From the IMG/VR virus record IMGVR_UViG_2974570554_000001: 64,000 bases of DNA. One strand, 5' to 3'. This document shows, piece by piece, positions 233-64,000 of the stretch (the first letter of the stretch is position 1; each line of letters begins with the position of its first letter). A program made the translations under genes and the position numbers. Below the pieces are notes generated by a model. It worked only from the letters and a program-made list of their open reading frames with translations, was not told where the DNA came from and did not search any database. This DNA is from a virus. Taxonomy: Duplodnaviria; Heunggongvirae; Uroviricota; Caudoviricetes; Demerecviridae.

Positions 233-254
233 GAGGGCAATTGCCCTCTTTTTA
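232..254 (+). terminator. rho-independent terminator after nrdD
   Basis: agagggcaa/ttgccctct hairpin followed by TTTTT. Confidence 0.6.
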
Positions 255-271
255 ACCCTAGGAGAAAGTAT

Positions 272-484
272 ATGAAATTATTTATGGCATCTTGGTGTAC
301 ATACTGCCAACCAGTTAAAGAACTAATCAAAAATAAAGGACTGGATGTACAACTATTGGATATTGACCACTCGTTCGAGCTAGCTAGTCAATATCGCATC
401 AAACAAATCCCGGCACTAGTATTAGACGATGACACAGTAATGTTAGAATCACTAGAAATTATGCGCTACTTGGAGACTCTATAA
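272..484 (+). CDS. glutaredoxin-like redoxin (NrdC/NrdH-type)
   Basis: 70 aa, CTYC active-site motif, RBS AGGAG, adjacent to nrd genes. Confidence 0.6.
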   Translation: MKLFMASWCTYCQPVKELIKNKGLDVQLLDIDHSFELASQYRIKQIPALVLDDDTVMLESLEIMRYLETL

Positions 485-3173: not shown

Positions 3174-3175
3174 AT

Positions 3176-3658
3176 ATGAATTATATGAATTACTACCCAA
3201 CAGATGTAGTTAATGGAGAGGGGACGCGATGCGTCCTCTTTGTTTCTGGATGTTCACATGGGTGTAAGGGCTGCTACAATGAGGTAGCTTGGAATCCAAA
3301 TAATGGACACGAATTCACCCAAGAACTGGAAGACCAAATTATCAAGGACTTACAAGATACTCGTATCAAGCGTAAAGGTATCACTCTATCTGGCGGAGAT
3401 CCTATGCATAAACGTAATGTGCAACAACTAGTTCAGTTATGTCATAGAATTAAGACTGAATGCCCAGGAAGGGACATTTGGCTCTACACTGGATACACAC
3501 ATGCTCAACTACTAGAAGATAAAAACCCATATCGTCAAGCATTGCTAGGATACACAGATGTTCTAGTAGATGGTAAATTCGAACAAGAACTATATGATCC
3601 AGGCTTACGCTTTCGTGGAAGTAGTAATCAACGTATCATTTACCTAGGGGACGCATAG
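3176..3658 (+). CDS. nrdG: anaerobic RNR activating enzyme NrdG (radical SAM)
   Basis: CSHGCKGC (CxxxCxxC) near the N-terminus; 160 aa. Confidence 0.8.
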   Translation: MNYMNYYPTDVVNGEGTRCVLFVSGCSHGCKGCYNEVAWNPNNGHEFTQELEDQIIKDLQDTRIKRKGITLSGGDPMHKRNVQQLVQLCHRIKTECPGRDIWLYTGYTHAQLLEDKNPYRQALLGYTDVLVDGKFEQELYDPGLRFRGSSNQRIIYLGDA

Positions 3659-3709
3659 CCCCCTTTCATGTCTCTATAGATGTTAACGTCATGTTATATA
3701 AAAATCTTC

Positions 3710-3738
3710 TTGCTATTTCGAGAGAATTTTTATATAAT
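3710..3738 (+). promoter_or_regulatory. T5 N25-type early promoter
   Basis: -35 TTGCTA at 3710, -10 TATAAT at 3733, 17-bp spacer, conserved leader AGTTCCATAAATTGAAAAGGAG. Confidence 0.6.
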
Positions 3739-3768
3739 AGTTCCATAAATTGAAAAGGAGATTGTATT

Positions 3769-4152
3769 ATGTTTTTAGATTATCAATTCTGCGAAGATAA
3801 TGATGTACGTATCGAAAAGATCCACCATCTTTCTACGCTAATCTCTAGTGATAGACGCAGCGATGTTGACGAGCTAATGCACGACTTAGATGGTTGCCAA
3901 ACTCAGTTCCACATCACAGAAAGAACAAAAGAGTTGGCTGACTTTCTAGACGCTGCTTATGAGCAAAAACTGCCAGACTACGCTATCAAAAACGAACTAT
4001 TTAATAAGGGTTTCCATAAAGGTATTGTGCTAGAAACCACGGTATTTAAGCAAGGACAGATTGGACGTCCTATATTATACATTTACGCTGAATCCGAATT
4101 GGAAGTTAAAGCTTTTATGGAAGAAGTATCTAATATTGTTTGGGGTGATTAA
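3769..4152 (+). CDS. hypothetical protein
   Basis: ORF downstream of the early promoter with RBS GGAG. Confidence 0.5.
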   Translation: MFLDYQFCEDNDVRIEKIHHLSTLISSDRRSDVDELMHDLDGCQTQFHITERTKELADFLDAAYEQKLPDYAIKNELFNKGFHKGIVLETTVFKQGQIGRPILYIYAESELEVKAFMEEVSNIVWGD

Positions 4153-4511
4153 TGAATATTCTATTAAGAGAGCGTTGGGAGCAAATCGTAAGTAATGTTC
4201 CAGCAACAGTAATACTTCCATCGGATATTGTGGACTTTATGTGCGAGTTCGGAGAGTCTCTAATTGACTCTAATGAGTGGCATGAAAACAGTTGGACTCT
4301 AATTGGCTTCGCTTTTGGCAATCCAAAGTGGTATCCCTTCGCCATAGAACTAGATATGGAAAAAGACTACACATACTGCCACATGGTACATGAGTTATTC
4401 GATGGTGATGGTGACTTAGAAAACGAATTTTTCGCAGACCTAATGAATGCTATCCCTGCGTACCGTAAACGCTTCTGTGATAATTTACTGGAGTTATTGA
4501 ATGACGATTAA
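4152..4511 (+). CDS. hypothetical protein
   Basis: Start overlaps the previous stop (ATGA); acidic. Confidence 0.5.
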   Translation: MNILLRERWEQIVSNVPATVILPSDIVDFMCEFGESLIDSNEWHENSWTLIGFAFGNPKWYPFAIELDMEKDYTYCHMVHELFDGDGDLENEFFADLMNAIPAYRKRFCDNLLELLNDD

Positions 4512-4947
4512 CAGTTTCCGAGGGGAACATGCGTTCCTATCTAATATGTTTGAAGTGGTAATTGAACATGACGGCATTACTTATCCTTCTAGTGAGAACA
4601 TGTATCAAGCGTTCAAAGCAGAAGAAAAACGAGAACGTAAGCTAATTGCTAAATTACCTCCAAACCAATCAAAGAACTACTGGAAATTTAATCCAGTTAA
4701 AAACCAGCTTTTCCATTGTAATAAACTAGCTTACATGGAAACCTGTCTAAGAGCCAAGTTCTCAAACCCACACCTAGCACATCTATTGCTAGCAACTGGT
4801 GACGCAGAGCTTATTGAAGGCAATTGGTGGGGTGATGGTTTCTGGGGTGTAATTGAAAAGACTGGTCACGGTCATAATAACCTTGGTAAGCTATTAATGA
4901 AGATTCGAGAGGAACTCCGTGAAGAACTTAAAGCAAAAACTAACTAA
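4501..4947 (+). CDS. NADAR/YbiA-like (DUF1768) protein
   Basis: N-terminal FRGEHAFLSNMFE...YPSSENMYQAFKA matches the NADAR signature. Confidence 0.65.
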   Translation: MTINSFRGEHAFLSNMFEVVIEHDGITYPSSENMYQAFKAEEKRERKLIAKLPPNQSKNYWKFNPVKNQLFHCNKLAYMETCLRAKFSNPHLAHLLLATGDAELIEGNWWGDGFWGVIEKTGHGHNNLGKLLMKIREELREELKAKTN

Positions 4948-5131
4948 GAATCCTAAACTAACATGTGGTGTAGGTTTGAAAGATGCAACGCCAGAAGAAA
5001 TAGCTGATATTAAGAAGTGGCTAGACGTTCGTGGTATTAAGTATGTACACAGAACTACTCACCTAAAGACAAATAATCCATTACCTTATAATGGTTTACT
5101 AATTATTAATCTTATCGGGACAAAGAAATGA
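4919..5131 (+). CDS. hypothetical ORF (GTG start, weak)
   Basis: Track ORF that overlaps the NADAR 3' end; no clear RBS. Confidence 0.2.
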   Translation: MKNLKQKLTKNPKLTCGVGLKDATPEEIADIKKWLDVRGIKYVHRTTHLKTNNPLPYNGLLIINLIGTKK

Positions 5132-5610
5132 CGTATGGCGTAGAAGACTTTAAGCCCTTTTATAACTATAAAATATACCCAGATGGGAGAGTATGGTCTT
5201 TAGCTAAGAAAAGATTCTTATCTCCATTCAAAAACAATTCTGGCTATTTGATGGTTAATCTATGCTTAAAAGGAAAAAGCACTAAGAAGCTGGTACATAG
5301 ACTAGTTGCAGAATTATTCGTAGAAGGAAAACAACCAGGATTGGAGGTCGATCATAGAGATCGGGACAAACTGAATAATTGGTATGAAAACCTGCGTTGG
5401 CAAACTCACTCAGAAAATGCCTCTAACAAAGGTGTCATAAAAGTAAAGAGCTATCCGAGTGTTAGAGACCCTAACGGGGTAGTGCACGAGGTAGAGCCTA
5501 ATATGAAATACTTTTGTATAAATCATGGGTTAGATAGGTCAGCCATGTCAAAAGTTACTCGTGGTATTTGGAAACAGTACAAGGGGTGGAGGTTAGCAAA
5601 TGACTTATAA
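5128..5610 (+). CDS. HNH homing endonuclease
   Basis: VDHRDRDKLNNWYENLRWQTHSENASNKG HNH motif; GYLMVNL N-terminal pattern of phage HNH homing enzymes. Confidence 0.65.
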   Translation: MTYGVEDFKPFYNYKIYPDGRVWSLAKKRFLSPFKNNSGYLMVNLCLKGKSTKKLVHRLVAELFVEGKQPGLEVDHRDRDKLNNWYENLRWQTHSENASNKGVIKVKSYPSVRDPNGVVHEVEPNMKYFCINHGLDRSAMSKVTRGIWKQYKGWRLANDL

Positions 5611-6061
5611 AGTATATACAGACGGCGGTTCAAGGGGGAATCCAGGTGTTGGTGGCTGGGCGTTTGTAGTATATCAGGGGTGGAGTGAAAAAGGGCATAA
5701 AAGTGGCGCGTTCGCAAAAACCACTAATAATATAGCCGAGCTAACAGCTATTGTAGAAGCTCTGCAATGGGCTATCCGTGCTAAGCTATCTCACATTGAA
5801 ATTCTAACAGACTCTAACTACGCTGTCCAAGGTTACAAAACGTGGATGCATGGTTGGGTTAAGAAAGGTTGGAAAACTGCGGGTGGAACTCCAGTTAAGA
5901 ACCTAGAACTTTGGCAGACATTATATAATATTTCTAGTCAAATTGATGTAACAATGACAAAAGTCAAAGGTCACTCAGGCATTGAAGGCAACGAACGAGC
6001 AGATGCTCTGTGTAATTGTGCAATGGACGAGTGGGAACTTGAAAATGTGGTGATGAAATGA
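5600..6061 (+). CDS. rnhA: ribonuclease H (RNase HI)
   Basis: YTDGGSRGNPG...TNNIAELTA...TDSNY...VKGHSGIEGNERADAL carry the catalytic DEDD/H residues. Confidence 0.8.
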   Translation: MTYKVYTDGGSRGNPGVGGWAFVVYQGWSEKGHKSGAFAKTTNNIAELTAIVEALQWAIRAKLSHIEILTDSNYAVQGYKTWMHGWVKKGWKTAGGTPVKNLELWQTLYNISSQIDVTMTKVKGHSGIEGNERADALCNCAMDEWELENVVMK

Positions 6062-6264
6062 GTAATTTTATTTGGAACATCAATTTCCTTATATTCTGGC
6101 GTCTAGCTTGGATTAAGAAAGGGTGTGAAGTTTTTGGTGATAATTGGGGTCAGATAGGTAGACTTTGTTATACCAAACAAACCACGCCTTACAAGTTCAT
6201 TATTCAACCAAAGATCACAAAGATTAAAAATTGGTTTGCTAATTTGGATAATAACTTGCTATAA
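6058..6264 (+). CDS. hypothetical small protein (weak)
   Basis: ATGA overlap with rnhA; Trp-rich; its 3' end overlaps the next promoter. Confidence 0.25.
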   Translation: MSNFIWNINFLIFWRLAWIKKGCEVFGDNWGQIGRLCYTKQTTPYKFIIQPKITKIKNWFANLDNNLL

Positions 6265-6265
6265 T
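6236..6265 (+). promoter_or_regulatory. T5-type early promoter
   Basis: -35 TTGCTA at 6236, -10 TATAAT at 6260, leader CATAGTTTGAAAG...GGAG. Confidence 0.55.
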
Positions 6266-6296
6266 ATTCGCATAGTTTGAAAGAACGGAGATTAAA

Positions 6297-6515
6297 ATGA
6301 TTTTAAAAGAAGATAATGTGGTTCAAAAAGATGGGCTGATGCACTTTACTGTGTACCACTCTAGAATAGACTTTGGTGTCTTTAAGAAGGGTGACGAAGT
6401 TTTCGTTTATAAAACAATCGAAGGTTTAGGTGACTTACAAGTACATAAGGCTGTACCGCTAGATACAGACCAAGTACACTACTTCTTCGACCATGAATTA
6501 GATCTGGAGCAGTAA
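6297..6515 (+). CDS. hypothetical protein
   Basis: RBS ACGGAG; 72 aa. Confidence 0.5.
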   Translation: MILKEDNVVQKDGLMHFTVYHSRIDFGVFKKGDEVFVYKTIEGLGDLQVHKAVPLDTDQVHYFFDHELDLEQ

Positions 6516-6516
6516 T

Positions 6517-6781
6517 ATGCCAAAAGCAACTGGTTACGAAAAAAGCATTTATTAAAGAGTGGGAAGATTGGGACGGCGATCAGTCAGTTCTAGCTTTCTA
6601 CAAATGTAAACTAGATGGTATCTTTGCCATTCTAGCAGATACAGAAGAAGCAGATGTAGTTGAAATTGATAACGAAAATTGTGTAGTTAATCTATATAAC
6701 TTTGGCGACAATGAACCATTCTTCGTACAACCGTTTAAAATTACTCTAGTGGAGAACACCGATGGCGAAAGCAACGATTAA
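6517..6781 (+). pseudogene. ORF interrupted at an A6 homopolymer (12-aa ATG ORF plus a 75-codon ATG-less ORF in the +1 frame)
   Basis: ATG at 6517 gives MPKATGYEKSIY*; a shift of one base inside gaaaaaagc continues as KAFIKEWEDWDGDQS... to the stop at 6781. Confidence 0.3.
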
Positions 6782-6956
6782 GAAAGAAGTTACCGTTACC
6801 TTAACGCTAACTCAAAATGAAGCTCGCTACCTAAAGGGGCTACTACAAAATTGGTTGGGTGAGTTTGAAGAACCTGCTGACCATAAAGAATTACGTAATG
6901 AACTCTTTAACGAAATCAACCAAGCTCTAGGAACTGCTTCACATAACTTCCGTTAA
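6762..6956 (+). CDS. hypothetical protein
   Basis: 64 aa ORF. Confidence 0.45.
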   Translation: MAKATIKKEVTVTLTLTQNEARYLKGLLQNWLGEFEEPADHKELRNELFNEINQALGTASHNFR

Positions 6957-6964
6957 AACTTGAA

Positions 6965-6992
6965 TTGCTAAAACATCAAAAACTTTATATAA
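6965..6992 (+). promoter_or_regulatory. T5-type early promoter
   Basis: -35 TTGCTA at 6965, -10 TATAAT at 6987. Confidence 0.6.
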
Positions 6993-7032
6993 TATTCCCA
7001 TAGTTTGAAAACAAAGAAAGGAAAAAATCAAT

Positions 7033-7308
7033 ATGACTGAACAAAAAGTAACTCTAAAACCTGTAGCTGGTGACTCTCTTCTAATCGGTAAATACCAGTC
7101 TGGTGTAGACCGTAAGGGTAAACCTGTGTTCCGTTCAATGCCAAAAGGCAAAGAACCTTCTACTATCGTGGAAGCGGTCTACGAAGACGGTCGTGTTCGC
7201 TCTAAAGAAGGCGACGTGTACGCAGTACGTCTGAACAAACGTCCAACTGTCATTAAGACTAAGCATGGTAAGAAAGCTCTTCCTGCTCAATGGATTACCG
7301 TAGCGTAA
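7033..7308 (+). CDS. hypothetical protein (basic)
   Basis: 91 aa; RBS AAAGGAAA. Confidence 0.55.
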   Translation: MTEQKVTLKPVAGDSLLIGKYQSGVDRKGKPVFRSMPKGKEPSTIVEAVYEDGRVRSKEGDVYAVRLNKRPTVIKTKHGKKALPAQWITVA

Positions 7309-7475
7309 TGGCTAAGGTACTTGTTGATGAGTCCGTATTATGGGGACTCATCAACTCCGACTTACTACTTCAACACCTAGAAAACGAAGGTGTTGATAAC
7401 TGGTCTGGGTACTATCATCCTGAAGACCTAGACGAACAAACTAACAAATTATTGAAGGAAATCAAACATGGCTAA
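7308..7475 (+). CDS. hypothetical small protein
   Basis: TAATG stop/start overlap. Confidence 0.4.
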   Translation: MAKVLVDESVLWGLINSDLLLQHLENEGVDNWSGYYHPEDLDEQTNKLLKEIKHG

Positions 7476-7716
7476 GAAACCTGCAAAAACAGTAAACACA
7501 GCAACAACTGAACGTAACAAAGCACGTCGTCTAGCACGCCACGTTAAGGCTCATCCTAAAGATGCACAGTCTGCTGCACGCGTGGGTAAACCACGTTCAG
7601 TTCGCAAAGCACCTTTTGTTAAGGGTAGCTTTCGCAAGGTTAACAAAGCATACCGTGATGAAGCGGGTCACGTACTGGAAGCACCTGCGTTTCGTCCAAT
7701 CGTTAAGAAAGCTTAA
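7468..7716 (+). CDS. small highly basic (K/R/A-rich) protein, possibly DNA-binding and histone-like
   Basis: 82 aa; KKPAKT...RLARHVKAHPK composition. Confidence 0.5.
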   Translation: MAKKPAKTVNTATTERNKARRLARHVKAHPKDAQSAARVGKPRSVRKAPFVKGSFRKVNKAYRDEAGHVLEAPAFRPIVKKA

Positions 7717-7722
7717 CAAAAT

Positions 7723-7750
7723 GAAAGGGGTTGGGTAGTCTAGCCCCTTA
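7723..7750 (+). terminator. putative terminator hairpin
   Basis: aggggttgggtagtctagcccct hairpin with a weak T tract. Confidence 0.35.
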
Positions 7751-7828
7751 TTAAGGAGACCTTATGTCTAGAAAAGAACTGTATAAACGATGGAAGCATC
7801 GACGCCTATACCGTGATGGAGTAAAGAA

Positions 7829-9326: not shown

Positions 9327-9361
9327 TAATTATGCAGAGAGCATAAAAATTAAAAATATAA

Positions 9362-9390
9362 TTGCTCTCTGCTAAAACCTTTGTTATAAT
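9362..9390 (+). promoter_or_regulatory. T5-type promoter (first of a tandem pair)
   Basis: -35 TTGCTC at 9362, -10 TATAAT at 9385. Confidence 0.45.
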
Positions 9391-9458
9391 GGTTATCTAA
9401 ATTAAAGAAAACCTCTTCATCAAATTTGAAAGCATTTGGTACTTAAATTAAAAATGTC

Positions 9459-9487
9459 TTGCTAAGTGCTTTGAAACTTGATATAAT
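9459..9487 (+). promoter_or_regulatory. T5-type early promoter
   Basis: -35 TTGCTA at 9459, -10 TATAAT at 9482, leader AGTTCCATAAATTGATAAGGAAT. Confidence 0.6.
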
Positions 9488-9517: not shown

Positions 9518-9673
9518 ATGAAAAAACGTGGTAAAATTCAAAAGATTGCAATGTTCGCTCTTGGTTACGGTTCTAGTATCCCTCTAGCGAGTAAGAAATC
9601 TGGTTTAGGTTTACGTCGTACTAAGACTCTAGCTAAACATATTGCCGAAAACGGTTTTCGTATTCGAGACTAA
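9518..9673 (+). CDS. small basic protein (51 aa; ORF track minimum is 60 aa)
   Basis: ATG 7 nt after RBS AAGGAAT; runs into the tRNA cluster. Confidence 0.4.
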   Translation: MKKRGKIQKIAMFALGYGSSIPLASKKSGLGLRRTKTLAKHIAENGFRIRD

Positions 9674-9678
9674 ATAAT

Positions 9679-9755
9679 TGCGAGGATGGAGAAATGGCGT
9701 CTTGCGAGTTTCATAAGCTCGATAACGGGTGGTTCGAATCCACCGCTCGCATCCA
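9679..9755 (+). tRNA. tRNA anticodon CAT (Met or Ile2-type)
   Basis: Anticodon arm cgagt-TTCATAA-gctcg; T-arm ggtgg-TTCGAAT-ccacc; CCA encoded. Confidence 0.55.
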
Positions 9756-9761
9756 AATTAT

Positions 9762-9838
9762 GCGCGTGTAGCTCAGTTGGTTAGAGCATCTGACTTTTAA
9801 TCAGGTGGTCGAAGGTTCGAGTCCTTCTACGCGCACCA
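9762..9838 (+). tRNA. tRNA-Lys (TTT)
   Basis: gcgcgtg acceptor stem; D-arm tagctcagttggttagagca; loop CTTTTAA; T-loop TTCGAGT; CCA encoded. Confidence 0.75.
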
Positions 9839-9839
9839 T

Positions 9840-9915
9840 ACACCGGAAGACAGATGGATTGGTCGTCACCCTTTCAAGGTGGAGTTTGCGGGTTCGAGTC
9901 CCGTCCGGTGTACCA
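9840..9915 (+). tRNA. tRNA-Glu (TTC)
   Basis: Anticodon stem tcacc/ggtgg with loop CTTTCAA; T-loop TTCGAGT; acceptor acaccgg/ccggtgt; CCA encoded. Confidence 0.6.
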
Positions 9916-10116
9916 AATTTAAGATTTCTTTAGCTAGTATCCTAAACCGTGCCAGTGCAAAGAACAACTCACCACCGAACGCAAGCAGCTAGTAGGTGGG
10001 GAACTGAGAAGTGGCGTTCTCAGCCGGAATTGCAATCCGAGTGGAGTATAGGGGTGTCGGTCGGCTACCACAGAGCAGCGAGATGCTAAGGGTATTAGGC
10101 TAAAGAGATTTTTAAC

Positions 10117-10193
10117 GGGGAATTAGCTCTAATTGGGAGAGCACCTGCTTTGCACGCAGGGGGTTATCGGTTCGAATCCGTTATTCTCCACCA
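10117..10193 (+). tRNA. tRNA-Ala (TGC)
   Basis: D-stem gctc/gagc; anticodon stem cctgc/gcagg with loop TTTGCAC; TTCGAAT T-loop; CCA encoded. Confidence 0.65.
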
Positions 10194-10199
10194 AATTCT

Positions 10200-10276
10200 A
10201 GAGGCTTGGCTGAGTTGGTTATAGCGACTCCTTCATGCGGAGTAAGACGGGGGTTCAAGTCCCTCAGCCTCTACCA
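10200..10276 (+). tRNA. tRNA-Met (CAT)
   Basis: Acceptor agaggct/agcctct; anticodon stem actcc/ggagt with loop TTCATGC; T-loop TTCAAGT; CCA encoded. Confidence 0.6.
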
Positions 10277-10304
10277 AGAATATTTATAAATAGGAATAAC
10301 CTAT

Positions 10305-10838
10305 ATGCCAAAACTAGTTACAAACAATAGAAAACAAAACCTAGAGAAAATAGAAGAACTATTTCTCGAACGACTAAAATCAGAAGGTATCACAGAAGCT
10401 CTAATGGGTAAGATGGTAAAAACCTTTTACGGTACAGCTCCTTGGTATTCTGCTAGAAGCAGAAAAGCACAGAAATCTCGTAGACAAATGTTCTACTACA
10501 TGGGTCACTCTCTGCTACTACTATGCAAAAAACACAGTATACCTACTAAAGCTGGTTTTGTGTACGCTGTAACTAATAAAACATTTCCAAACTGTGTAAA
10601 GTTGGGACACACAAAAGATTGTGAAGACCGACTAATGCAGTACCAAACACATAGCCCACTAAAAGACTATGAAATGACTTGGCAGCAGTTCACCCTAGAC
10701 TCTTATGCTGCAGAGCAGAAACTTCTTTCATTATTTGAGAGAATACGCCCTAACGGGGAGTGGGTAAGTCTACAAACTGAGGACACTTTAAAGTTGAAAC
10801 AGTTACTAAATAAAAGTTTTAAAAGTTTGTCGTATTAA
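10305..10838 (+). CDS. T5orf172 / GIY-YIG-like domain protein, a putative homing-type endonuclease inside the tRNA cluster
   Basis: GFVYAVTNKTFPNCVKLGHTKD...RLMQYQTHSP resembles the T5orf172 (GIY-YIG superfamily) core; it lies between tRNA genes. Confidence 0.5.
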   Translation: MPKLVTNNRKQNLEKIEELFLERLKSEGITEALMGKMVKTFYGTAPWYSARSRKAQKSRRQMFYYMGHSLLLLCKKHSIPTKAGFVYAVTNKTFPNCVKLGHTKDCEDRLMQYQTHSPLKDYEMTWQQFTLDSYAAEQKLLSLFERIRPNGEWVSLQTEDTLKLKQLLNKSFKSLSY

Positions 10839-56185: not shown

Positions 56186-56210
56186 CAATTCATGAGAAAG
56201 GCTTTATAAT
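56182..56210 (+). promoter_or_regulatory. consensus sigma70 promoter firing into the non-coding repeat region
   Basis: -35 TTGACA at 56182, 17-bp spacer, -10 TATAAT at 56205; no ORF for more than 1.2 kb downstream. Confidence 0.5.
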
Positions 56211-56459
56211 ATATCTAAAGACCTATAGACATTTATGACAGGGCTAGGGATGAGCCACAGCGTGACGTGACAAAAATTACGACACGTCCTAAGCACAGGC
56301 TAGCACACAGACCTTGCCCGTCATGAGATATAAGGGGGAGTATTAACTAAAGAAAACTATATTTATAGACGAACAGAATACGCCCCGCTATAACTCTAGC
56401 CTGCTATTACAACAACCCTATTCTTCACTCTAGCTTCGTATGATGTCTAGAGTTTTCTT

Positions 56460-57000
56460 GTATCTAGAATTTGCACCACCTCACGTTAGTGTATCCTCGG
56501 CATATCTCGTGCGAAGCACATGTCTAGCCGGAATTGGGGGAAGGACAAAGGGTACAATAGGTTCTATCATTAATAGTAGAAGTCGGATTTGCACCTGGTT
56601 AAGGAGCGACCCCCGAAAAGTCAATTGGTTTTTCCAAATTTCTGCCCAAATCCCACAAAATCTTTAAATCCTGTCTGTTTTGCACCTAGACCACCATATA
56701 ACCCCCATAAACGCCTAAAAAACTCGAAAAATCCAATTTGAGGTCGGATCCGCACCTGCTGGCGGGCGCAGAGTGTCAATTGAAGTTTTATCGAATTTGC
56801 ACCGCTCGCGCTAGCGTATCCACACCCAAATTCGGGCATAATATGTGCGCAGCACGAGTCTAGCCCGTGTCCCCATGTCGGTTCTGCACCTAGTCCCACC
56901 AAAATAATTTATAATAGAATTTGCACCTACTGCCCCAAGAATGTCGTTTTTGCACTTGTCGGATTCGCACCTACAGGCGCAGAGGACATCGAGCCGTCTA
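56460..57000. repeat. array of about 9 dispersed TTTGCACCT-type repeats (GTCGGATTTGCACCT core) plus the palindrome CTAGACGTCTAG
   Basis: Copies near 56469, 56589, 56676, 56751 (TCCGCACCT), 56803, 56888, 56924, 56950 and 56964 with irregular spacing; non-coding. Confidence 0.6.
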
Positions 57001-57049
57001 GACTTCTATCCATCTAGACGTCTAGCCATCCGTATGGCATACTGCAAAC

Positions 57050-57250
57050 CGTTACAGTACACCGTGTTGTATAAAATTTTACCGTATACCGTCCCGTATA
57101 AAATATGGCACGATTCTTGCTTATTAAAAAGTTATCCACAACTGTATATTTATACATCGCTCTAAAACGCTCTATACAGAGTTATCCACAACCTTATCCA
57201 CCGAAAAACTACTGTATAGATATACAGATATATACTTGCCTTATATTATT
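57050..57250. promoter_or_regulatory. DnaA-box cluster with iterons and an AT-rich palindrome (origin-like, or host-DnaA binding as at the T5 injection-stop region)
   Basis: TTATCCACA at 57133 and 57183, TTATCCACC at 57194; repeated CCGTATA / GTATAAAAT; palindrome TGTATAGATATACAG. Confidence 0.5.
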
Positions 57251-57480
57251 TCGAATACCGTTTCTAGCGCCTATAAGCCACGTACAGACGTTTTAAGCCT
57301 TTTAGGGTACTATGACGCCTACACCATCCTATACGCCCATAGCGCCATGTAACACTAGCACGACTTTTACGTGCTGCCGGAGCGGCGCGGTTTACCATAC
57401 TGTAAACAAGTTACAGATAGGTGTACGGTAAAAGTTGATGAAAAAGCGTCACTTTTCGGTGACGCTGTAACAGTTTAAAT

Positions 57481-57687
57481 CTAGTCTATAATCCAGAGGT
57501 ATTCCCCTTCTTTCAATCCTAGCAAGTGGTTAAACCCTGTCAGGATACGCCCCCACGGGATAGGGCTGCCCTCCATAGTCTCACACCACTCCAAGTACAT
57601 AGTGGTGATATTTTCGCTAAAATCACCGTTTCTTACACGGTCTTGAATTTCACCCAAGCCGATAATCACTACAGAATGGCGTTCCAT
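57481..57687 (-). CDS. hypothetical small protein (leftward operon)
   Basis: 68 aa; its start abuts the stop of the upstream minus-strand gene. Confidence 0.45.
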   Translation of the reverse strand: MERHSVVIIGLGEIQDRVRNGDFSENITTMYLEWCETMEGSPIPWGRILTGFNHLLGLKEGEYLWIID

Positions 57688-57867
57688 TTAGTTTACCTCC
57701 ACCGGATAAAGTTTGTTTACTACAGCGTACACCGTACCGTTATCATCTTGCCACACCTGACCAAATTCGGTGGTTTCTACGTGCTTCAAAATCATAGGAA
57801 CAATATGACCATTATGCATAATGTTGCACATCCAAGTTTGTCCCAAGGTCATAACGTGAACGCTCAT
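57688..57867 (-). CDS. hypothetical small protein (59 aa; ORF track minimum is 60 aa)
   Basis: ATG 57867..57865 overlaps the upstream stop (ATGA); translation MSVHVMTLGQTW... Confidence 0.4.
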   Translation of the reverse strand: MSVHVMTLGQTWMCNIMHNGHIVPMILKHVETTEFGQVWQDDNGTVYAVVNKLYPVEVN

Positions 57868-58112
57868 TAGTAAGTTACCTTTAGGTCAGCAGTTAATGAA
57901 ACACGAAATTCTTGTGTCGCAGGTACTTCAAAAAATATACCACTCCCAAGACTTACAACGCCGATATATTTATCGTCCACGCCGTGAACGTTATCACAAT
58001 CTGTCACGATAAGAGGGGCGTTATCCTCATCTAGCACGATTGTTCCCGCAGCAATATCATATAGCGGTAGTTTCTTGCTACTAGTAGCCGTTGCAATTGA
58101 TAGTTTACTCAT
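57867..58112 (-). CDS. hypothetical small protein
   Basis: 81 aa. Confidence 0.45.
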   Translation of the reverse strand: MSKLSIATATSSKKLPLYDIAAGTIVLDEDNAPLIVTDCDNVHGVDDKYIGVVSLGSGIFFEVPATQEFRVSLTADLKVTY

Positions 58113-58217
58113 TTTAGAATCACCAAAATTTTATTATAGTCCATACGTACCGTATAAAACGGTTTGCCATTTCTAGCAGCCCATAGCAACGCAGTTGCAT
58201 AGTTGTCAAATTCCATA

Positions 58218-58448
58218 CTAATAATGTGTCGGTAGGTTAAGTCTTAACAATCCATTGCGAACACCAAAACATAGGTGCTTACATTCTACAGGTTCAAGCT
58301 CGCAAGGGTAGCACATAAAAGACTCACCACAATAAACATACGGGGATACTACAGAAATATAACTCCCGTCAATGGCTACAATAACACCACATTTGCCGTT
58401 AGTATCTTTGCAGCGACCTTTTACTTTTACAATTTGGTTAACTTTCAT
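58218..58448 (-). CDS. hypothetical Cys-rich small protein
   Basis: 76 aa, 7 Cys. Confidence 0.4.
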   Translation of the reverse strand: MKVNQIVKVKGRCKDTNGKCGVIVAIDGSYISVVSPYVYCGESFMCYPCELEPVECKHLCFGVRNGLLRLNLPTHY

Positions 58449-58522
58449 TTATGGGTACTCCGTAGGGTATAGGGTACACATAGCATACCCTAAACATGTT
58501 AACACAATGATTACAACTAACA

Positions 58523-58843
58523 TTATAAATCTAGCCATCCATTGTAAAACGTTGCGCCCTCAAAAATCGCGCGCCATGTTAACAAGTCAGCCCTAGCGTA
58601 TTGGTACAGCATACCGCCATTAGTCGCGCCCTTAGCAAAAGCTATAGCATACGCTAAAACTTTAGCTTTTAACACGTCCTCGACATCATTGAAAAGGCTG
58701 ATATTTCGAGTGATTTCGAAATGGTATTCTTTGTTGCTCAAGAAGCATTGAGCCATTTCTAGACGTTTGCTCATTGGAGTATCCGCGTCCAGTTGGTACG
58801 CTGTACTGATTTTTGGTTGTTCTAAAAATTGTTGGTACGACAT
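58523..58843 (-). CDS. hypothetical protein
   Basis: 106 aa. Confidence 0.45.
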   Translation of the reverse strand: MSYQQFLEQPKISTAYQLDADTPMSKRLEMAQCFLSNKEYHFEITRNISLFNDVEDVLKAKVLAYAIAFAKGATNGGMLYQYARADLLTWRAIFEGATFYNGWLDL

Positions 58844-58919
58844 TTTGTTGCCCTCGCTTAAAGCGGTTATTATTGTCTAGGTCTTAATAATAACCTAGGC
58901 GACTGATAAAAACTTTGAC

Positions 58920-59234
58920 CTAGCTCACAAAATGATAATCTACTTGATCAATACCAATTTCTCGCCAAACGGGATCATTAGTTGTTAGGCCATACCCATT
59001 TAGTATAAAGTCAATACTAGCATTATTACCTAGATTACAAAGCCCTTCAATATTCATTTGGTCGTTATAGAACATAATACCGTAAGCCGGATTAACCATA
59101 ACAGCCAATTGAGAATCATTCTCAATATACCATACGGTATTCTCAGGGCTTTCTTCATCAATGATTTTACGTGCTTCAGCAATGATTGAGTCTAGGCTAA
59201 TCAAAGTTGGTGTTTCTTTACAATTAAAACCCAT
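58920..59234 (-). CDS. hypothetical acidic protein
   Basis: 104 aa. Confidence 0.45.
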   Translation of the reverse strand: MGFNCKETPTLISLDSIIAEARKIIDEESPENTVWYIENDSQLAVMVNPAYGIMFYNDQMNIEGLCNLGNNASIDFILNGYGLTTNDPVWREIGIDQVDYHFVS

Positions 59235-59407
59235 TATTCACTATCCTCTAAACAAGTGCAACAAATTAGACACAAATCGCATTCACCACAAAAATCAGCG
59301 CAGTCATCGCAGTTATCGCATTCTGGACAAACATCCAGATAATCAACCGAGCCACATTTAGGGCAAGGCTCATTATCCGCATCATACTGTTTACACATTT
59401 TTAACAT
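59234..59407 (-). CDS. Cys-rich metal-binding-like small protein
   Basis: CPKCGSVDYLDVCPECDNCDDCADFCGECDLCLICCTC; internal ATG with RBS GGAG; the longer track ORF starts with TTG. Confidence 0.4.
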   Translation of the reverse strand: MLKMCKQYDADNEPCPKCGSVDYLDVCPECDNCDDCADFCGECDLCLICCTCLEDSE

Positions 59408-59462
59408 CTCCAATAAGGGTAAAAACCAACCAATAGGGATAAACAAAACGCTATACTGCAAA

Positions 59463-59585
59463 TTAGTTCAAACATGTTATGCCTACTTTTTCAAATAGTT
59501 TATGCATAGTTGCGGCAGTCGCCACACACTCGCCAGTCTCAATACTGATACAAAACCAAATAACATCAAAAAACATACGGTACAT
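59463..59585 (-). CDS. small hydrophobic protein (40 aa)
   Basis: RBS GGAGGG 7 nt before the ATG; first gene of the leftward operon. Confidence 0.35.
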   Translation of the reverse strand: MYRMFFDVIWFCISIETGECVATAATMHKLFEKVGITCLN

Positions 59586-59744
59586 TGTTTTGCCCTCCTA
59601 GTGGGTAGGCTTTTATTACACTCCTATTTTCATGATTTGTCTAATAACATTTAGTTATATCCACCAGCAAAACGATGCCCAGGCGTTATAAGCGCTGTAA
59701 GCCACTCTGAGAGGTTCTAGCAAAAAGCCTTGTTTTAGTATGCC

Positions 59745-59915
59745 TTACCTGTGGATAACCGCTTACAATGGATTCTAGAGCCTAGAAACGCCATTCTATA
59801 TCGTATAAGCTGTGATTTAGTGTAGATAAAAGCCGTTTTCCTGTTAGTATCTTGTGGATAACCAGTAGATATACAGTATTATTAGAACTTGCTAATGTTA
59901 ATAAGTCTGTGGATA
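59745..59915. promoter_or_regulatory. second DnaA-box cluster, in opposite orientation to the first
   Basis: TGTGGATAA at 59752, 59851 and 59905, in the divergent intergenic region. Confidence 0.5.
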
Positions 59916-60369
59916 AAAAGTTGGCACGAAAATTTCCTAATATATAAATCAAGAAATATTTTGCTATATAATATAACTAGAAATTCTTTGACAAGCTCAA
60001 AAATCTATGAATCGAGTTATGCATGAAAGTGACTAAATATGCAGAAAAATAGCTAAAAGTGCATAAACGATTTAAATGGGCAAACGTACAGGGTAAGGCT
60101 ATTTTTCAATACAGAGCCATACAGAGCGTTTTAGAGGCATGTATAAATATACAGTAGTTTTTAAGTTGGCATGGTTATTGCTACGCGTGCGCATTCTTTA
60201 TATATTTAAGCAAAAATTCGCTGATAGATAAAACCTATCAATAAGCCAAAAAGAAAAGATTTAAACGATTAGACTATAATCCTAGATTCGCTATTATATA
60301 CCCATACCGCAACAACACGGCGGGGAAGAAAAGCTTGAAAAGCTTCTCGAAAAAAGTTGAAAAAAGTTG

Positions 60370-60397
60370 TTGACAAGGTTTTTTAAATCCTTATAAT
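60370..60397 (+). promoter_or_regulatory. consensus sigma70 promoter for the rightward module
   Basis: -35 TTGACA at 60370, 16-bp spacer, -10 TATAAT at 60392. Confidence 0.5.
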
Positions 60398-60561
60398 GGC
60401 AACCAGAAACAACGAAAACGCTCTTTAACAATTTGGAAAATGCGATTTGACCCATTGCTTACTTGATTGGTTGCTGAGTGATAACCGTTAGCTGATTTTG
60501 AGGAAGTCAGCTAACTGAGAATCACTCTCATTTTAAACTAACCTATTAAGAGGAAAATATC

Positions 60562-60999
60562 ATGGCTAAAAAATGGACAGAAGAAATGGCGGAAAAAGCA
60601 GCAACTCTTTACACTGCTAAACTTGAAGCGGAAGGTAAAGAAGCGGCAGCACATACCGATTTTCTTGATACTATTGCGGTTGACGTTGAAGCGGTAAGTG
60701 GTAAAGCGGTTCGCTCAAAACTTACTGTTATGGGTGTTTACCAGAAACCGGACGCCGTAGCTAGTGTAGCTAAAACGAACACTGTACGCAAAGAACACTA
60801 TGTTCGTGCTCTAGCTCATACGCTTGGCTTAGACGCTGACGATTTGGACAGCTTGAAAAACGCTAAAATGTCAGCCCTTGAAGCGTTATCGACTGCGATT
60901 GGTATCACTGATATTCAGGCAGCAAGCGCAAAAGATTACGAACCTGATTTAGAAAAGGTTTGTGAAGCTTTCGAAAACGCCCGTGGTCTAGACCTATAG
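60562..60999 (+). CDS. hypothetical protein (A2-position, pre-early-like)
   Basis: RBS AAGAGGAAAA; 145 aa; codon usage richer in GCG/CCG/CGT than the early region. Confidence 0.5.
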   Translation: MAKKWTEEMAEKAATLYTAKLEAEGKEAAAHTDFLDTIAVDVEAVSGKAVRSKLTVMGVYQKPDAVASVAKTNTVRKEHYVRALAHTLGLDADDLDSLKNAKMSALEALSTAIGITDIQAASAKDYEPDLEKVCEAFENARGLDL

Positions 61000-61080
61000 A
61001 CGCCTAAACAATTAGGGGGAATTATCCCCCTAATTTACAGTGTAAATTTACCCAAGTTTACACTGTAAATTAACCCATAA

Positions 61081-61449
61081 TTGGAGAGTAACAAAATGGC
61101 TAAAATTAGTATTAAATCGCTTTTAAACAATGGTAGCGCAAAACAAGAACTACAAAACAAAGTGGAAAAACTAACAGGTGTTAGTTTTAACTGGCGACCA
61201 AATAACCGTATTTCTGGGCGTACACTGCAAGCCGTCATTGACCTATCAGAGTACAAACGACCGCTTTTTAATGAAAGTGAGATTGATTCGCTACGCTACG
61301 AAAACAAGGCAGCAAAAACAGTTGTTTTGGGTATGTTGTGCGAAGCTCTAGAAATCAGTGACCTAGAACAACGCAAGGCAATTATGACGATTGCGAGTTG
61401 TTCAAGCTCTGACGACTTTGTGACAAAAGTTCTATTCATGTTTGTATAA
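61081..61449 (+). CDS. hypothetical protein
   Basis: RBS TTGGAGAG; 122 aa. Confidence 0.45.
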   Translation: MESNKMAKISIKSLLNNGSAKQELQNKVEKLTGVSFNWRPNNRISGRTLQAVIDLSEYKRPLFNESEIDSLRYENKAAKTVVLGMLCEALEISDLEQRKAIMTIASCSSSDDFVTKVLFMFV

Positions 61450-61523
61450 CGGGACAAAATATTCTAGGGTATTCTAGCGAGTACCCTAGCGAATATTTTT
61501 AACCGCAAAAGCGAGTATATACA

Positions 61524-63188
61524 ATGAAACAAGTAAACGAAGTAATCACAGCAAACGCAACGGCAATCATTAAAGCGGCAAAAGGTCTTAACTTTTGGCA
61601 AAAACGCCTAGATACAAAACGCCGTGAATGTGCTATCGAAATTCGTGATACTCTCAAGCTAGATTTACATTCTACTGTTTTGGTGGAATGGCTAGACGAC
61701 AACAAGCCAGTCAAACCAGTAAAAGCAAAAAGTCATACACAGCAAGCACAGCAAGATATTGAGCCAACGTTTGCGGGTTCACTAACAGGTCGTGAGCGTG
61801 ACCAATTAGAAGACGGTGTTTATGTTCTAACAGCCGGACAAAACAACACTAATCCGCATCCAGTGTTAAAAACATTGCTATCAATTGCAAATGAGCTTGA
61901 TGCTGAATTTGGTATTATGCCAATCAAATACACAACTGTATTGCAAGGTCGTGAGCGCAAAGAGCCTAAATATCATGCAGATATTAAAATGCATGTTCTA
62001 GAGCCTGTTGATACTTGGCTAGGTGGTGAAGGTAACGTGCTACTAGCTAACAGTGCCCAGATTCTACCAACGGCTAAACAGCCAATTAACGCCGCTGAGC
62101 GTTTGAACACTGGTGAATCTATGACCATTGTTGCAAGTCCTCGCCGCCAAGCGAAAACGCTATCACGCCAGAAAAACGGTGCATTCCGTTGGGTTTATAC
62201 TACTGGTGTGTGTACTCAAATGCATTACACTGACAGCCGAGCAGGGGCGGAAGCTGAAGCCGAACATTGCTTAGGTGGTCTATTGATTGAAGTCAAAGAC
62301 GGTTTAGTGAGCCACCGCCGACTAACAGCCGATGAAAACGGCGTGATTATTGATGCAGGTTCGGTGTACTTCCCTGACGGCTCAATCAAAGCTTACAATG
62401 ATGTTTTCGAGCAAAAGCCTGTTATCGTTCTAGGTGATTTGCATTGCGAAAAAATGTGTGACGATTCATTCACCAGAGCATTACGCCAAATTCACGACGT
62501 TAACCCGTCTCTAATCGTGGTTCATGATGCGCTTGATTTTATGAGCCGTAATCACCACAACCGTGAAGACTGGACATTCTTATACCAAATGCAAGACCGC
62601 TCAGTAATTGAAGATTTAACCGATGTAATCAACCACTTGAATGCACTTGCTGACTATGCGCCTGTTTTCATTGTTGAATCTAATCATGATTTAGCTCTAG
62701 ATTCTTGGGTACGTGACAATAAATTCGATGTTCGCAAAGACCCGAAAAACGCCCGTACTTATCACGCTCTAATGCTTGCTTACATTGAAGCAATGGACAA
62801 TAACGAGCTAGGCGATATGGCAAAAATGGATTTAGCATTCCGAGCACTTGCCGATAAATTGCCAGAGCTAAACAGCAATATTGAATTTGGTAAAATCGAC
62901 TCACAACGTCTAGTATTTGGTTATGATGTTTCTATGCATGGTCATGTTGGTACAGGTGGAGCGCGTGGCTCAGCAGTATCATTCAAAAAGATGCGCATCA
63001 AAACTGTAACAGGTCACACCCATTCACCATTTGAAGATAATAATACGGTTGTTGTTGGTGTAACAGGTTCGATGGAAATGGGCTACAACAAAGGCGGTAC
63101 AACTTGGGACAGAGCAAACGCCGTTGTTTACCCTAACTCAACTCACCAACTACTACCAACCTACCTAATCGGTGAAGAACAATTCTAA
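61524..63188 (+). CDS. A1-like calcineurin-type metallophosphoesterase (554 aa; putative host-DNA-degradation / DNA-transfer protein)
   Basis: VLGDLHCE, HDALD, ESNHD, GHVGTGG and GHTHSP phosphoesterase motifs in the C-terminal half; size matches T5 A1 (about 556 aa). Confidence 0.5.
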   Translation: MKQVNEVITANATAIIKAAKGLNFWQKRLDTKRRECAIEIRDTLKLDLHSTVLVEWLDDNKPVKPVKAKSHTQQAQQDIEPTFAGSLTGRERDQLEDGVYVLTAGQNNTNPHPVLKTLLSIANELDAEFGIMPIKYTTVLQGRERKEPKYHADIKMHVLEPVDTWLGGEGNVLLANSAQILPTAKQPINAAERLNTGESMTIVASPRRQAKTLSRQKNGAFRWVYTTGVCTQMHYTDSRAGAEAEAEHCLGGLLIEVKDGLVSHRRLTADENGVIIDAGSVYFPDGSIKAYNDVFEQKPVIVLGDLHCEKMCDDSFTRALRQIHDVNPSLIVVHDALDFMSRNHHNREDWTFLYQMQDRSVIEDLTDVINHLNALADYAPVFIVESNHDLALDSWVRDNKFDVRKDPKNARTYHALMLAYIEAMDNNELGDMAKMDLAFRALADKLPELNSNIEFGKIDSQRLVFGYDVSMHGHVGTGGARGSAVSFKKMRIKTVTGHTHSPFEDNNTVVVGVTGSMEMGYNKGGTTWDRANAVVYPNSTHQLLPTYLIGEEQF

Positions 63189-63207
63189 ACCGTAGCACAT
63201 AAACTAC

Positions 63208-63909
63208 GTGGCGGGCGCAAATGTGATGCCCGTCACACTTTTACTTAACCGCATAAGCGAGTATTTACCAATGAAAAAAGCATACATATTTGACCTAGAC
63301 GGAACAACAATTGATAGTTTTCACCGTGTTGAGCCGTGTCTTGATTCACAAGGTAACTTGAATCTAGATAAATATATTAAGGAAGCTTGCACTCCTGAAA
63401 AGGTAGCCAATGACAAACTGTTGCCCCTTGCCGGATACATGCAACAACTAATCAAACAGGGTGAACTTGTTATCATCCTAACAGCTCGTTACATGCTTAA
63501 TCATGATTATGTTTACCTACGCCGTAACCAATTGAGAACGCCTATCATTTGCAGCCGTGACCAATTGAGCCGTGTATTCGGTGAAGGTAATGCAGCCCGT
63601 ATCAGTGCAATGTCAGACGCACCATACAAACAACAATGGTTCGAGCATCTATTTGCTAGTATGCCACAAGTTACAGAATGGTGTTTCTTTGACGACCATG
63701 ACGGTATATTAGAAATGGCTAATTCATTAAAAGGTGTTACAGCTACAGACGCCAAATTGATGAATCAGTTGTTAGAAATGCAATGGGCTGACATTTACCG
63801 CCAAGGTGAACAAGACACCGCCGAGTTGATTCAAGACCTAATCGCTGAATGTTCACATCAAGACGTGATTTGCAAACCAGAATGGATTGACCAGCTTTTA
63901 GCTGAATAA
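63208..63909 (+). CDS. HAD-family 5'-deoxyribonucleotidase-like protein (Dmp-like)
   Basis: Internal MKKAYIFDLDGTTIDS (HAD motif I); 233 aa versus about 244 aa for T5 Dmp; lies next to the A1-like gene. Confidence 0.5.
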   Translation: MAGANVMPVTLLLNRISEYLPMKKAYIFDLDGTTIDSFHRVEPCLDSQGNLNLDKYIKEACTPEKVANDKLLPLAGYMQQLIKQGELVIILTARYMLNHDYVYLRRNQLRTPIICSRDQLSRVFGEGNAARISAMSDAPYKQQWFEHLFASMPQVTEWCFFDDHDGILEMANSLKGVTATDAKLMNQLLEMQWADIYRQGEQDTAELIQDLIAECSHQDVICKPEWIDQLLAE

Positions 63910-64000
63910 TCAAAGAAAAGCTGTACAAATGAGAATGATTACCGTCCTCAATAAGGGGGGCGGTAATGAGACTTGTTCTCATCTACGGTAGGGTGTGCAC

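Follow-up and report, generated by a model that had tools for sequence, protein, structure and literature searches.

Conserved DnaA-box modules in the terminal repeat of Vibrio phage Thalassa: a probable counterpart of the injection-stop region of phage T5

The DNA analysed here (IMG/VR record IMGVR_UViG_2974570554_000001; 64,000 nt, hereafter the window) was identified by megablast as the right half of the genome of Vibrio phage Thalassa (MG649967; 128,602 bp; Demerecviridae, Ermolyevavirinae), and contains two opposed clusters of consensus sites for the host protein DnaA (DnaA boxes). These boxes are the known but unexplained element of the first-step transfer (FST) region and injection stop signal (iss) of phage T5, met here in a new lineage, the Vibrio phages of the Ermolyevavirinae and their relatives. 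A DnaA box in the T5 iss was observed in 1987 (Heusterspreute et al., 1987, as related in the preprint by Davison, 2020, bioRxiv 10.1101/866236). About eight DnaA or DnaA-like boxes, typically in 3-bp-spaced pairs and arranged in two inverted modules, were described for 25 enterobacterial T5-like phages, a set that contains no Vibrio phage, and membrane-bound DnaA was proposed to retain the entering DNA until A1 and A2 release it (Davison, 2020). The feature is real and ancient, and its kind is already known. The initial annotation of the window, in which host DnaA was suggested to act as a roadblock, overlooked the known T5 architecture, and this suggestion is a hypothesis already published for T5-like coliphages (Davison, 2020). 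The boxes are as follows.

57132-57140, plus strand: DnaA box 1, TTATCCACA, in the boundary-proximal, iss-like module
57182-57202, plus strand: DnaA box pair TTATCCACA-ACC-TTATCCACC with a 3-bp spacer, the second box (57194) being near-consensus
59750-59758, minus strand: perfect DnaA box TGTGGATAA, A2-proximal module
59821-59829, minus strand: near-consensus DnaA box TGTAGATAA, A2-proximal module
59853-59861, minus strand: perfect DnaA box TGTGGATAA, A2-proximal module
59896-59916, minus strand: DnaA*-GTC-DnaA pair TGTTAATAA-GTC-TGTGGATAA, boxes at 59896 and 59908 (perfect) with a 3-bp GTC spacer

Perfect TTATCCACA is present at exactly five sites on the two strands of the window, and the two opposed clusters had been recognised from the outset with coordinates 1-3 nt off, as had the extra near-consensus box at 57194 (TTATCCACC, plus strand), which is confirmed. 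All left boxes are in the plus orientation and all right boxes in the minus orientation, giving 3 + 5 = 8 boxes per repeat, which comprise two 3-bp-spaced pairs (57182/57194 and 59896/59908) and four singles. The impression that so many sites exceed chance holds: 100 dinucleotide-preserving shuffles of the window contain 0.57 sites on average and 2 at most, and none of the 100 reaches five. Scaled from the shuffle mean, ~0.025 sites would be expected in the 2.8 kb that contain all five, corresponding to a probability of ~1e-10 (Poisson estimate). For genome-wide searches, the whole 128,602-bp genome was reassembled from the public record, and the suspected local enrichment is decisively borne out, with five perfect boxes in each 7395-bp copy of the terminal repeat and zero in the 113.8 kb of unique DNA. 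With the relaxed consensus TTWTNCACA, no enrichment is seen outside the box region.

The genome begins and ends with the same 7395 bases (window coordinates are record coordinates minus 64602), and the record runs from the left repeat through the late genes, and then through the early and replication genes to the right repeat. The record runs in reverse compared with T5, so that the right repeat of Thalassa is the counterpart of the left repeat of T5, which is the DNA entering the cell first. The units that define this layout are as follows.

56606-64000: right terminal repeat of Thalassa, 7395 bp, identical to record positions 1-7395
60562-63909, plus strand: pre-early operon with A2 (60562-60999), gp224 (61096-61449), A1 (61524-63188) and dmp (63208-63909)
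60370-60397, plus strand: consensus sigma70 promoter TTGACA-16-TATAAT (12/12 matches), driving A2-gp224-A1-dmp
57481-59585, minus strand: nine small pre-early open reading frames (ORFs), gp214-gp222, 35-106 aa, transcribed away from A2 toward the repeat boundary
57445-57466, minus strand: intrinsic terminator of the small-ORF operon (8-bp stem, 5 G-C pairs, T-run)
56464-56970, plus strand: DRD-type repeat array, GTCGGATTTGCAC and variants, straddling the inner repeat boundary at 56606

Inward from the right end of the window lie dmp, A1, gp224, A2, a 976-bp intergenic region that contains the minus-oriented boxes and the sigma70 promoter facing A2, the nine small ORFs and their terminator. Further inward come the plus-oriented boxes, the repeat array, the boundary at 56606 and the convergent early genes, such that the boundary module sits between the minus-strand operon terminator and the plus-strand early genes gp205-211. 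Long direct terminal repeats and, counted from the end, the gene order dmp-A1-A2 characterise T5-type FST modules and are both present here, and the early assignment of this segment to the pre-early DNA, the first-injected part of a T5-like phage, is upheld.

Read from the entering end inward, Thalassa and T5 present their elements in the same order. In the annotation of T5 AY587007 (Wang et al., 2005), A2 is followed by IRC (6022-6060) and IRD (6112-6152) between divergent promoters, and then by ORF011-017, terminators, palindrome D/IRD'/IRC' (9330-9462), DRD and convergent early ORFs; nine copies of DRD (9673-10398) cross the repeat end at 10139. DnaA boxes are found in T5 at 6045 and 6118 (plus) and at 9358, 9370, 9419 and 9431 (minus), the last four forming two 3-bp-spaced pairs. 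In Thalassa, the elements that accompany the boxes are the following.

57052-57104, plus strand: two tandem 26-nt repeats TTACnGTAyACCGT...GTATAAAAT, directly outside the box module
57106-57120, plus strand: sigma54-type -24/-12 motif TGGCACGATTCTTGC, with 11 bp between its end and DnaA box 1
57142-57157: SOS-box-like palindrome CTGTATATTTATACAT, one core mismatch
57160-57173, plus strand: IRB-like motif CTCTAAAACGCTCT, with an inverted copy at 60123-60136
57212-57227: palindrome CTGTATAGATATACAG with a perfect LexA/SOS-box core (CTGT-N8-ACAG), separated from the preceding box pair by 9 bp
59920-60050: AT-rich tract (25-28% G+C) beside the right box cluster, between the divergent operons
59922-59936, plus strand: degenerate sigma54-type motif TGGCACGAAAATTTC, immediately after the last box
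60123-60136, plus strand: inverted IRB-like motif, forming inverted repeat I1 with 57160-57173
60139-60154: SOS-box-like palindrome ATGTATAAATATACAG, one core mismatch
60167-60181, plus strand: sigma54-type motif TGGCATGGTTATTGC, after the 60139-60154 palindrome

A k-mer comparison of the non-coding parts of the two genomes, whose A1 proteins are only ~30% identical in amino acids, reveals several identical motifs. The 16-mer ATAAGTCTGTGGATAA (59901-59916), which belongs to the DnaA*-GTC-DnaA pair, is identical to T5 9424-9439 in IRC', and AAGTTATCCACA is also common to both non-coding parts. The accessory repeats DRD, palindrome D and IRB are all represented, by an identical 13-mer, 18-mer, 16-mer and 10-mer: the DRD 13-mer GTCGGATTTGCAC keeps its T5 relative orientation and straddles the boundary in both phages, the 15-nt stretch 57142-57156 (overlapping 10-mers) and, in the 60123-60181 region, the 18-mer TGTATAAATATACAGTAG are common to T5 palindrome D, and CTAAAACGCT is the core of T5 IRB/IRB' (5289/6196) and is also found in Klebsiella phage KpGranit at 7390. 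Within Thalassa, the inverted repeats I1, I2, I3 and I12 connect the two modules at 73-88% identity over 16-48 nt. Taken together, it is very probable that the Thalassavirus A2-proximal cluster (59750-59916) corresponds to IRC-spacer-IRD of T5, and that the boundary cluster (57132-57202), with its SOS-like palindrome and DRD, corresponds to IRD'-spacer-IRC' and is the candidate iss.

The boundary module resembles the T5 iss region (Repeat Region 3) in its position, ~0.5 kb inside the inner repeat end and after the small-ORF operon and its terminator, and in its composition of a palindrome, a box pair with a 3-bp spacer, a ~50-bp spacer, a further box and a repeat array over the boundary. It differs in having three boxes (two perfect) instead of four (one perfect and three variants), in carrying a sigma54-type motif on the outer side, and in having CTAGAC-rich and 26-nt repeats in place of the Fur-box-like DRC palindromes. 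Likewise, the A2-proximal module shares with T5 Repeat Region 2 (IRC-spacer-IRD) the inverted boxes on the A2 side of the cassette, between divergent pre-early units, and the same accompanying palindrome and IRB motif, whereas the Thalassa copy, with five boxes, is rearranged and spread over ~430 bp (59750-60181), and its palindrome lies on the A2 side of the boxes, not on the far side as in T5. The terminal repeat is 7.4 kb long in Thalassa and 10.1 kb in T5, and the host of Thalassa is Vibrio.

The clusters are conserved well beyond Thalassa, and both the placement of the boxes and their orientation are retained between the Vibrio phages and T5. In the loci of Vibrio relatives that span both positions, perfect boxes are present in two clusters only, plus-oriented at 4.3-5.0 kb and minus-oriented at 1.6-1.9 kb upstream of A1. 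In an alignment of the boundary module from eight phages, all nine columns of box 1 are invariant compared with a mean column identity of 61%, and this alignment includes a D415-type phage with an A1 only 36% identical; in D415 a box stands inverted. In the corresponding A2-proximal alignment of eight phages, which includes phages with an A2 only 33-34% identical, nine of nine columns are invariant for the box at 59750 and eight of nine for that at 59853. At the 59821 box, the GATAA columns do not vary, and GGTGGATAA is found in the three most distant phages (L006, L008 and L017). The GTATAAAATA part of the 26-nt repeats and the TTGACA of the 60370-60397 promoter are kept in the Vibrio relatives, which have TGGCATGATAGTTGC or TGGCACGAAAATTGC at the position of the degenerate motif at 59922-59936. 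In 44 GenBank records, the boundary module (141 nt) is 95-99% identical; the whole 3.6-kb region, by contrast, shows ~90% identity over 63-74% coverage. This pattern, in which non-coding DNA is conserved above the surrounding coding DNA, matches what was reported for coliphages (Davison, 2020).

Searches with the 141-nt module (blastn) also give partial matches in DU_PP_V, at ~7.1 kb, and within the terminal repeats of three further phages, Slocum, My1 and phiR2-01. Klebsiella phage KpGranit (Sugarlandvirus) has the same arrangement around a repeat boundary defined by PhageTerm, with eight DRD copies (2721-3267) across it. V. cholerae phage phi 3, which is in the T5 orientation and has an annotated left terminal repeat ending at 7769, contains a palindrome, two boxes, a sigma54-like motif and nine DRD copies (7527-7783) at 7229-7783, and the same arrangement is found in Vibrio phages of the X1/VspSw1, Ceto and D415 types. 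Four phages have an annotated or measured repeat boundary, and in each of them the module is found 410-680 bp inside it. In IMG/VR loci with a ~29% identical A1, no perfect boxes are present. Rhizobium phage RHph_N1_10 and Shewanella phage 1/4 were considered as an outgroup; they have A1-like genes in a different context and neither A2 nor a terminal repeat, so that they are unusable for analysis of host-specific motif covariation. The 3-bp-spaced pair TTATCCACANNNTTATCCAC was rejected as a marker of T5-like phages, as it matches more than 120 IMG/VR contigs, most of which are not of T5 size, and is not specific.

How T5 stops after ~8% of its DNA has been injected, and then restarts, has been an open question for ~60 years. 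Between E. coli and Vibrio phages, A1 is ~30% and A2 31-40% identical and the genes in between are entirely replaced, yet four motif types persist: DnaA box pairs, the SOS-box-like palindrome, IRB and DRD. Such retention is strong comparative evidence for a function of these motifs. It is also possible, from the comparison, to narrow the target to a ~100-bp module (57106-57227) that is amenable to mutation or binding assays, and a second, genetically tractable host is available.

The best overall explanation, which we hold tentatively, is that the clusters are T5-type FST/iss modules on which a host-protein complex pauses DNA transfer. The dmp end (the right end of the window) would enter the cell first, and the naked DNA would present high-affinity consensus sites for DnaA, probably for LexA and, in Vibrio lineages, possibly for sigma54-RNA polymerase. 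The bound proteins would form a nucleoprotein complex ~0.5 kb inside the terminal-repeat boundary, and this complex would halt further transfer after ~6.9 kb (5.3% of the genome) until A1 and A2 have been made. The inverted second cluster might bridge to the first via DnaA oligomers, thereby looping out the small-ORF cassette. Judged by their sequences, the boxes are probably bound by host DnaA; that the pause itself works through DnaA is possible, if somewhat doubtful. This explanation is ranked above its rivals because the boxes retain the exact host consensus in different hosts and lineages, because the universally conserved cluster is the one at the boundary (phi 3 has no perfect boxes near A2), and because that cluster lies at the position of the T5 shear point.

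Several points weigh against this explanation. The absence of a perfect box from the A2-proximal region of phi 3 indicates that this cluster is dispensable in at least one lineage; Davison's Type 4 phages are also without the A2-side cluster (Davison, 2020). The surrounding non-coding DNA, especially 59687-59935, is also highly conserved, so that conservation does not single out the boxes. The first-entering end is assumed from homology to T5, and two-step transfer has been demonstrated for T5 and BF23 only. A 2023 paper on BF23 and a 2026 paper in PNAS call the function of the DnaA boxes experimentally untested, and in the accessible literature no experimental DnaA binding or role was found for any T5-like phage. 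The inverted-repeat arms (41-48 nt, 73-83% identity) are much less symmetrical and more rearranged than the 131-bp near-identical copies of T5. Also, boxes 1 and 2 are 50 bp apart from start to start, compared with the constant 52-bp spacer of Davison (2020), which is defined differently; the start-to-start distance is 49-61 bp in the relatives and T5, the arms being delimited otherwise than for that spacer.

The boxes might instead serve as a transcriptional insulator or regulator, with DnaA (and LexA) acting on RNA polymerase and not on DNA transfer: the boundary module would back the terminator against read-through between the convergent pre-early and early units, and the A2-proximal module would tune or separate the divergent promoters. 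The layout suits such a role, since the boundary module lies between the operon terminator and the convergent early genes, as in T5, and the A2-proximal cluster occupies the intergenic region between the divergent units, with a perfect sigma70 promoter downstream of it. DnaA-box complexes at asnC are reportedly able to block transcribing RNA polymerase, a finding credited to Schaefer and Messer. However, none of the boxes overlaps the 60370-60397 promoter, the distance being no less than 450 bp, the operon is already closed by a good intrinsic terminator, and the leftward promoter is not located, which leaves the boxes unplaced relative to the leftward start; we consider an insulator rather unlikely. 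Recognition of the boxes, palindrome, IRB and DRD by phage proteins, namely by A2/A1 for transfer restart or cleavage or by terminase for repeat formation, or use of these sequences as homology arms for cassette exchange, would make the match to DnaA and LexA sites incidental or a mimicry. A2 does belong to a DNA-binding protein family (phrog_1725), the DRD array lies over the physical genome end in four genera, as expected of an end-formation signal, and the cassette is swapped between close relatives with 95-99% identical flanks. Yet 9/9 matches to the DnaA consensus and perfect CTGT-N8-ACAG cores persist although A2 is only 31-40% identical across the lineages, which is more easily explained by a conserved host partner, and the phage-protein reading is clearly unlikely.

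In the classical T5 iss model, DNA structure alone is responsible, with palindromes and inverted repeats forming hairpins, cruciforms or a knot that jams transfer without any host protein. Palindromes and inverted repeats are indeed numerous in Thalassa, and the left module folds somewhat better than its shuffles (z = -2.2; 4 of 200 shuffles as good). This gain in stability is modest, however, and the right module shows even less of it (z = -1.6; 6 of 100 shuffles as good), the entering DNA is double-stranded, and the exact conservation of protein-consensus 9-mers, including the inverted box of D415, is left unexplained. Secondary structure was accordingly rejected as a full explanation, its z-scores being only modest, and a purely structural stop is very unlikely. 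Finally, the boxes might constitute a DnaA-dependent replication origin or titrate host DnaA. Like E. coli oriC, the region combines consensus R-type boxes, close same-orientation sites, two opposed arrays and an adjacent AT-rich tract (25-28% G+C); unlike oriC, the arrays are 2.6 kb apart, bracket genes, and lie in the first-injected DNA of a lytic phage with its own replisome. In T5, origins are placed close to the middle of the genome, and the replication genes reach the cell only in the second transfer step (Davison, 2020); Thalassa itself has genes for a polymerase, a primase, helicases and a 'replication binding protein', all distant from the repeat. Eight sites per repeat are few compared with those of the host chromosome, and an origin or a DnaA sponge is highly improbable.

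DnaA sites are accompanied by other candidate host-protein sites. The palindrome of the T5 'palindrome D' type beside the boxes (CTGTATAnnTATACAG) is a near-consensus LexA/SOS box that is conserved from T5 to Vibrio phages: it is found in Thalassa at 57212, in T5 at 9332 and 6137, in KpGranit at 3534 and 7161, in phi 3 at 7229, and in other Vibrio lineages including D415. T5 palindrome D TACTGTATAAATATACAGTA matches the textbook LexA consensus TACTGTATATATATACAGTA at 19 of 20 positions. In Thalassa, 57212-57227 has the sequence of a LexA/SOS box with an AT-rich centre and, apart from its twin in the other copy of the repeat, is the sole AT-rich CTGT-N8-ACAG of the genome. It resembles the LexA/SOS operators of Gammaproteobacteria in its perfect core and AT-rich centre, and differs from them in overlapping no recognisable promoter and in adjoining DnaA boxes in non-coding DNA of a virulent phage. 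The composite of a DnaA box within 3-33 bp of CTGTAT-N4-ATACAG is found in 92 IMG/VR stretches, at least 41 of which adjoin homologues of dmp, A1 or A2; among the 80 stretches listed of the 92, 31 of 62 contigs are 100-131 kb long, which is T5 size. The text of Davison (2020) mentions neither LexA nor SOS.

The sigma54-type sequence TGGCAYG-N4-TTGC occurs twice in the window (57106 and 60167) compared with 0.18 expected, and these are the only two in the genome. A sigma54-type motif is present beside the boxes and palindrome in every Vibrio T5-like lineage sampled (including L006, L008, L016, L017 and phi 3), with up to seven motifs per pre-early region in the relatives; T5 and KpGranit have none. 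Some copies in the relatives are face-to-face or overlap opposite-strand start codons, which is unusual for real promoters, and the Thalassa genome encodes no GAFTGA-type activator. Fur-box-like palindromes (e.g., AATGAGAATCATTATC) are located between the DRD array and the boxes in T5 (9574-9640), KpGranit (3352-3411) and VspSw1-type phages (L006, 4223-4604; equivalents in L008 and L017), and the Thalassa module has no Fur-box-like site. A literature search found no paper on the pre-early regions of Thalassa or the Ermolyevavirinae, and none dealing with LexA sites in the repeats of T5-like phages or with sigma54 motifs in this group.

These LexA-like and sigma54-like sites point to further candidate host factors. 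A speculative and rather improbable extension is that the injection-stop region of T5-like phages is a landing pad for several abundant host DNA-binding proteins, with DnaA boxes and a near-consensus LexA/SOS box as the universal core. Individual lineages would add extras to it, the Vibrio phages -24/-12 sites for sigma54-RNA polymerase, and T5, KpGranit and VspSw1-type phages Fur-box-like palindromes, and a multi-protein brake or boundary complex would form on the whole. If so, the LexA component would link release of the brake to the host DNA damage caused by A1.

DRD arrays straddle the inner repeat boundary, i.e., the physical genome end, in four genera, and may be an end-formation or packaging signal. 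In Thalassa, copies with at most two mismatches start at 56582, 56673, 56743, 56790, 56877, 56943 and 56958, and weaker copies at 56464 and 56914. The interval 56186-57480 contains no supported gene and forms a repeat-rich untranslated stretch that overruns into unique DNA. GenBank calls differ between the two identical repeat copies at 56621-56902 (minus), 56941-57165 (plus) and 59234-59461 (minus); gp213, which overlaps DnaA box 1, is annotated in the right copy only, gp212/gp1 falls inside the DRD array, and gp212 and gp213 are probably not real genes. An Rfam scan of the terminal repeat gave a single sub-threshold chance match and no known RNA.

The minus-strand cassette between the two modules was initially described as eight tightly coupled ORFs; the block at 57481-59585 is present and comprises nine ORFs in GenBank (gp214-gp222), two of whose junctions are gaps of about 75 nt. 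The Cys-rich protein noticed there (CPKCG...CPECDNCDDC) is genuine and is gp221/gp9, the start codon of which differs between the repeat copies (75 or 54 aa). The suspicion that the small proteins include Ocr/ArdA-like or other anti-restriction folds or families was not supported by searches of Pfam and PHROGs or, for gp220 only, by structure: no Pfam family was found for the nine, and the PHROGs matches, obtained for eight ORFs but not for gp221, are all to families of unknown function. For gp220, the homologue search yields only six close relatives, and its low-confidence AlphaFold2 model (predicted local distance difference test score, pLDDT, 62.5) has no Foldseek match in the PDB at E below 0.1. 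The content of the cassette varies even among phages with 96-98% identical A1, A2 and dmp; among the phages sampled, gp214 and gp216 are found in Thalassa only, even in comparison with a phage of that similarity. The position of a variable cassette between conserved modules suggests cassette exchange via the conserved flanks.

As for the intergenic region, no convincing sigma70 match was found on the minus strand of 59586-60400 for the leftward promoter of the nine-ORF operon. The description of the segment as AT-rich applies to 59850-60050 (25-28% G+C), the only strongly AT-rich stretch in a genome of 40% G+C overall. The block GTCTAATAACATTTAGTTATA (59637-59657), which has an ATAAC-N5-GTTAT dyad, is near-invariant in all eight Vibrio phages between variable flanks. 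A further conserved block at 60020-60075 contains TGCA-containing dyads (ATATGCAG...AAGTGCATAAAC) ~110-145 bp upstream of the sigma54-type motif at 60167, which is the usual distance of enhancer-binding-protein sites.

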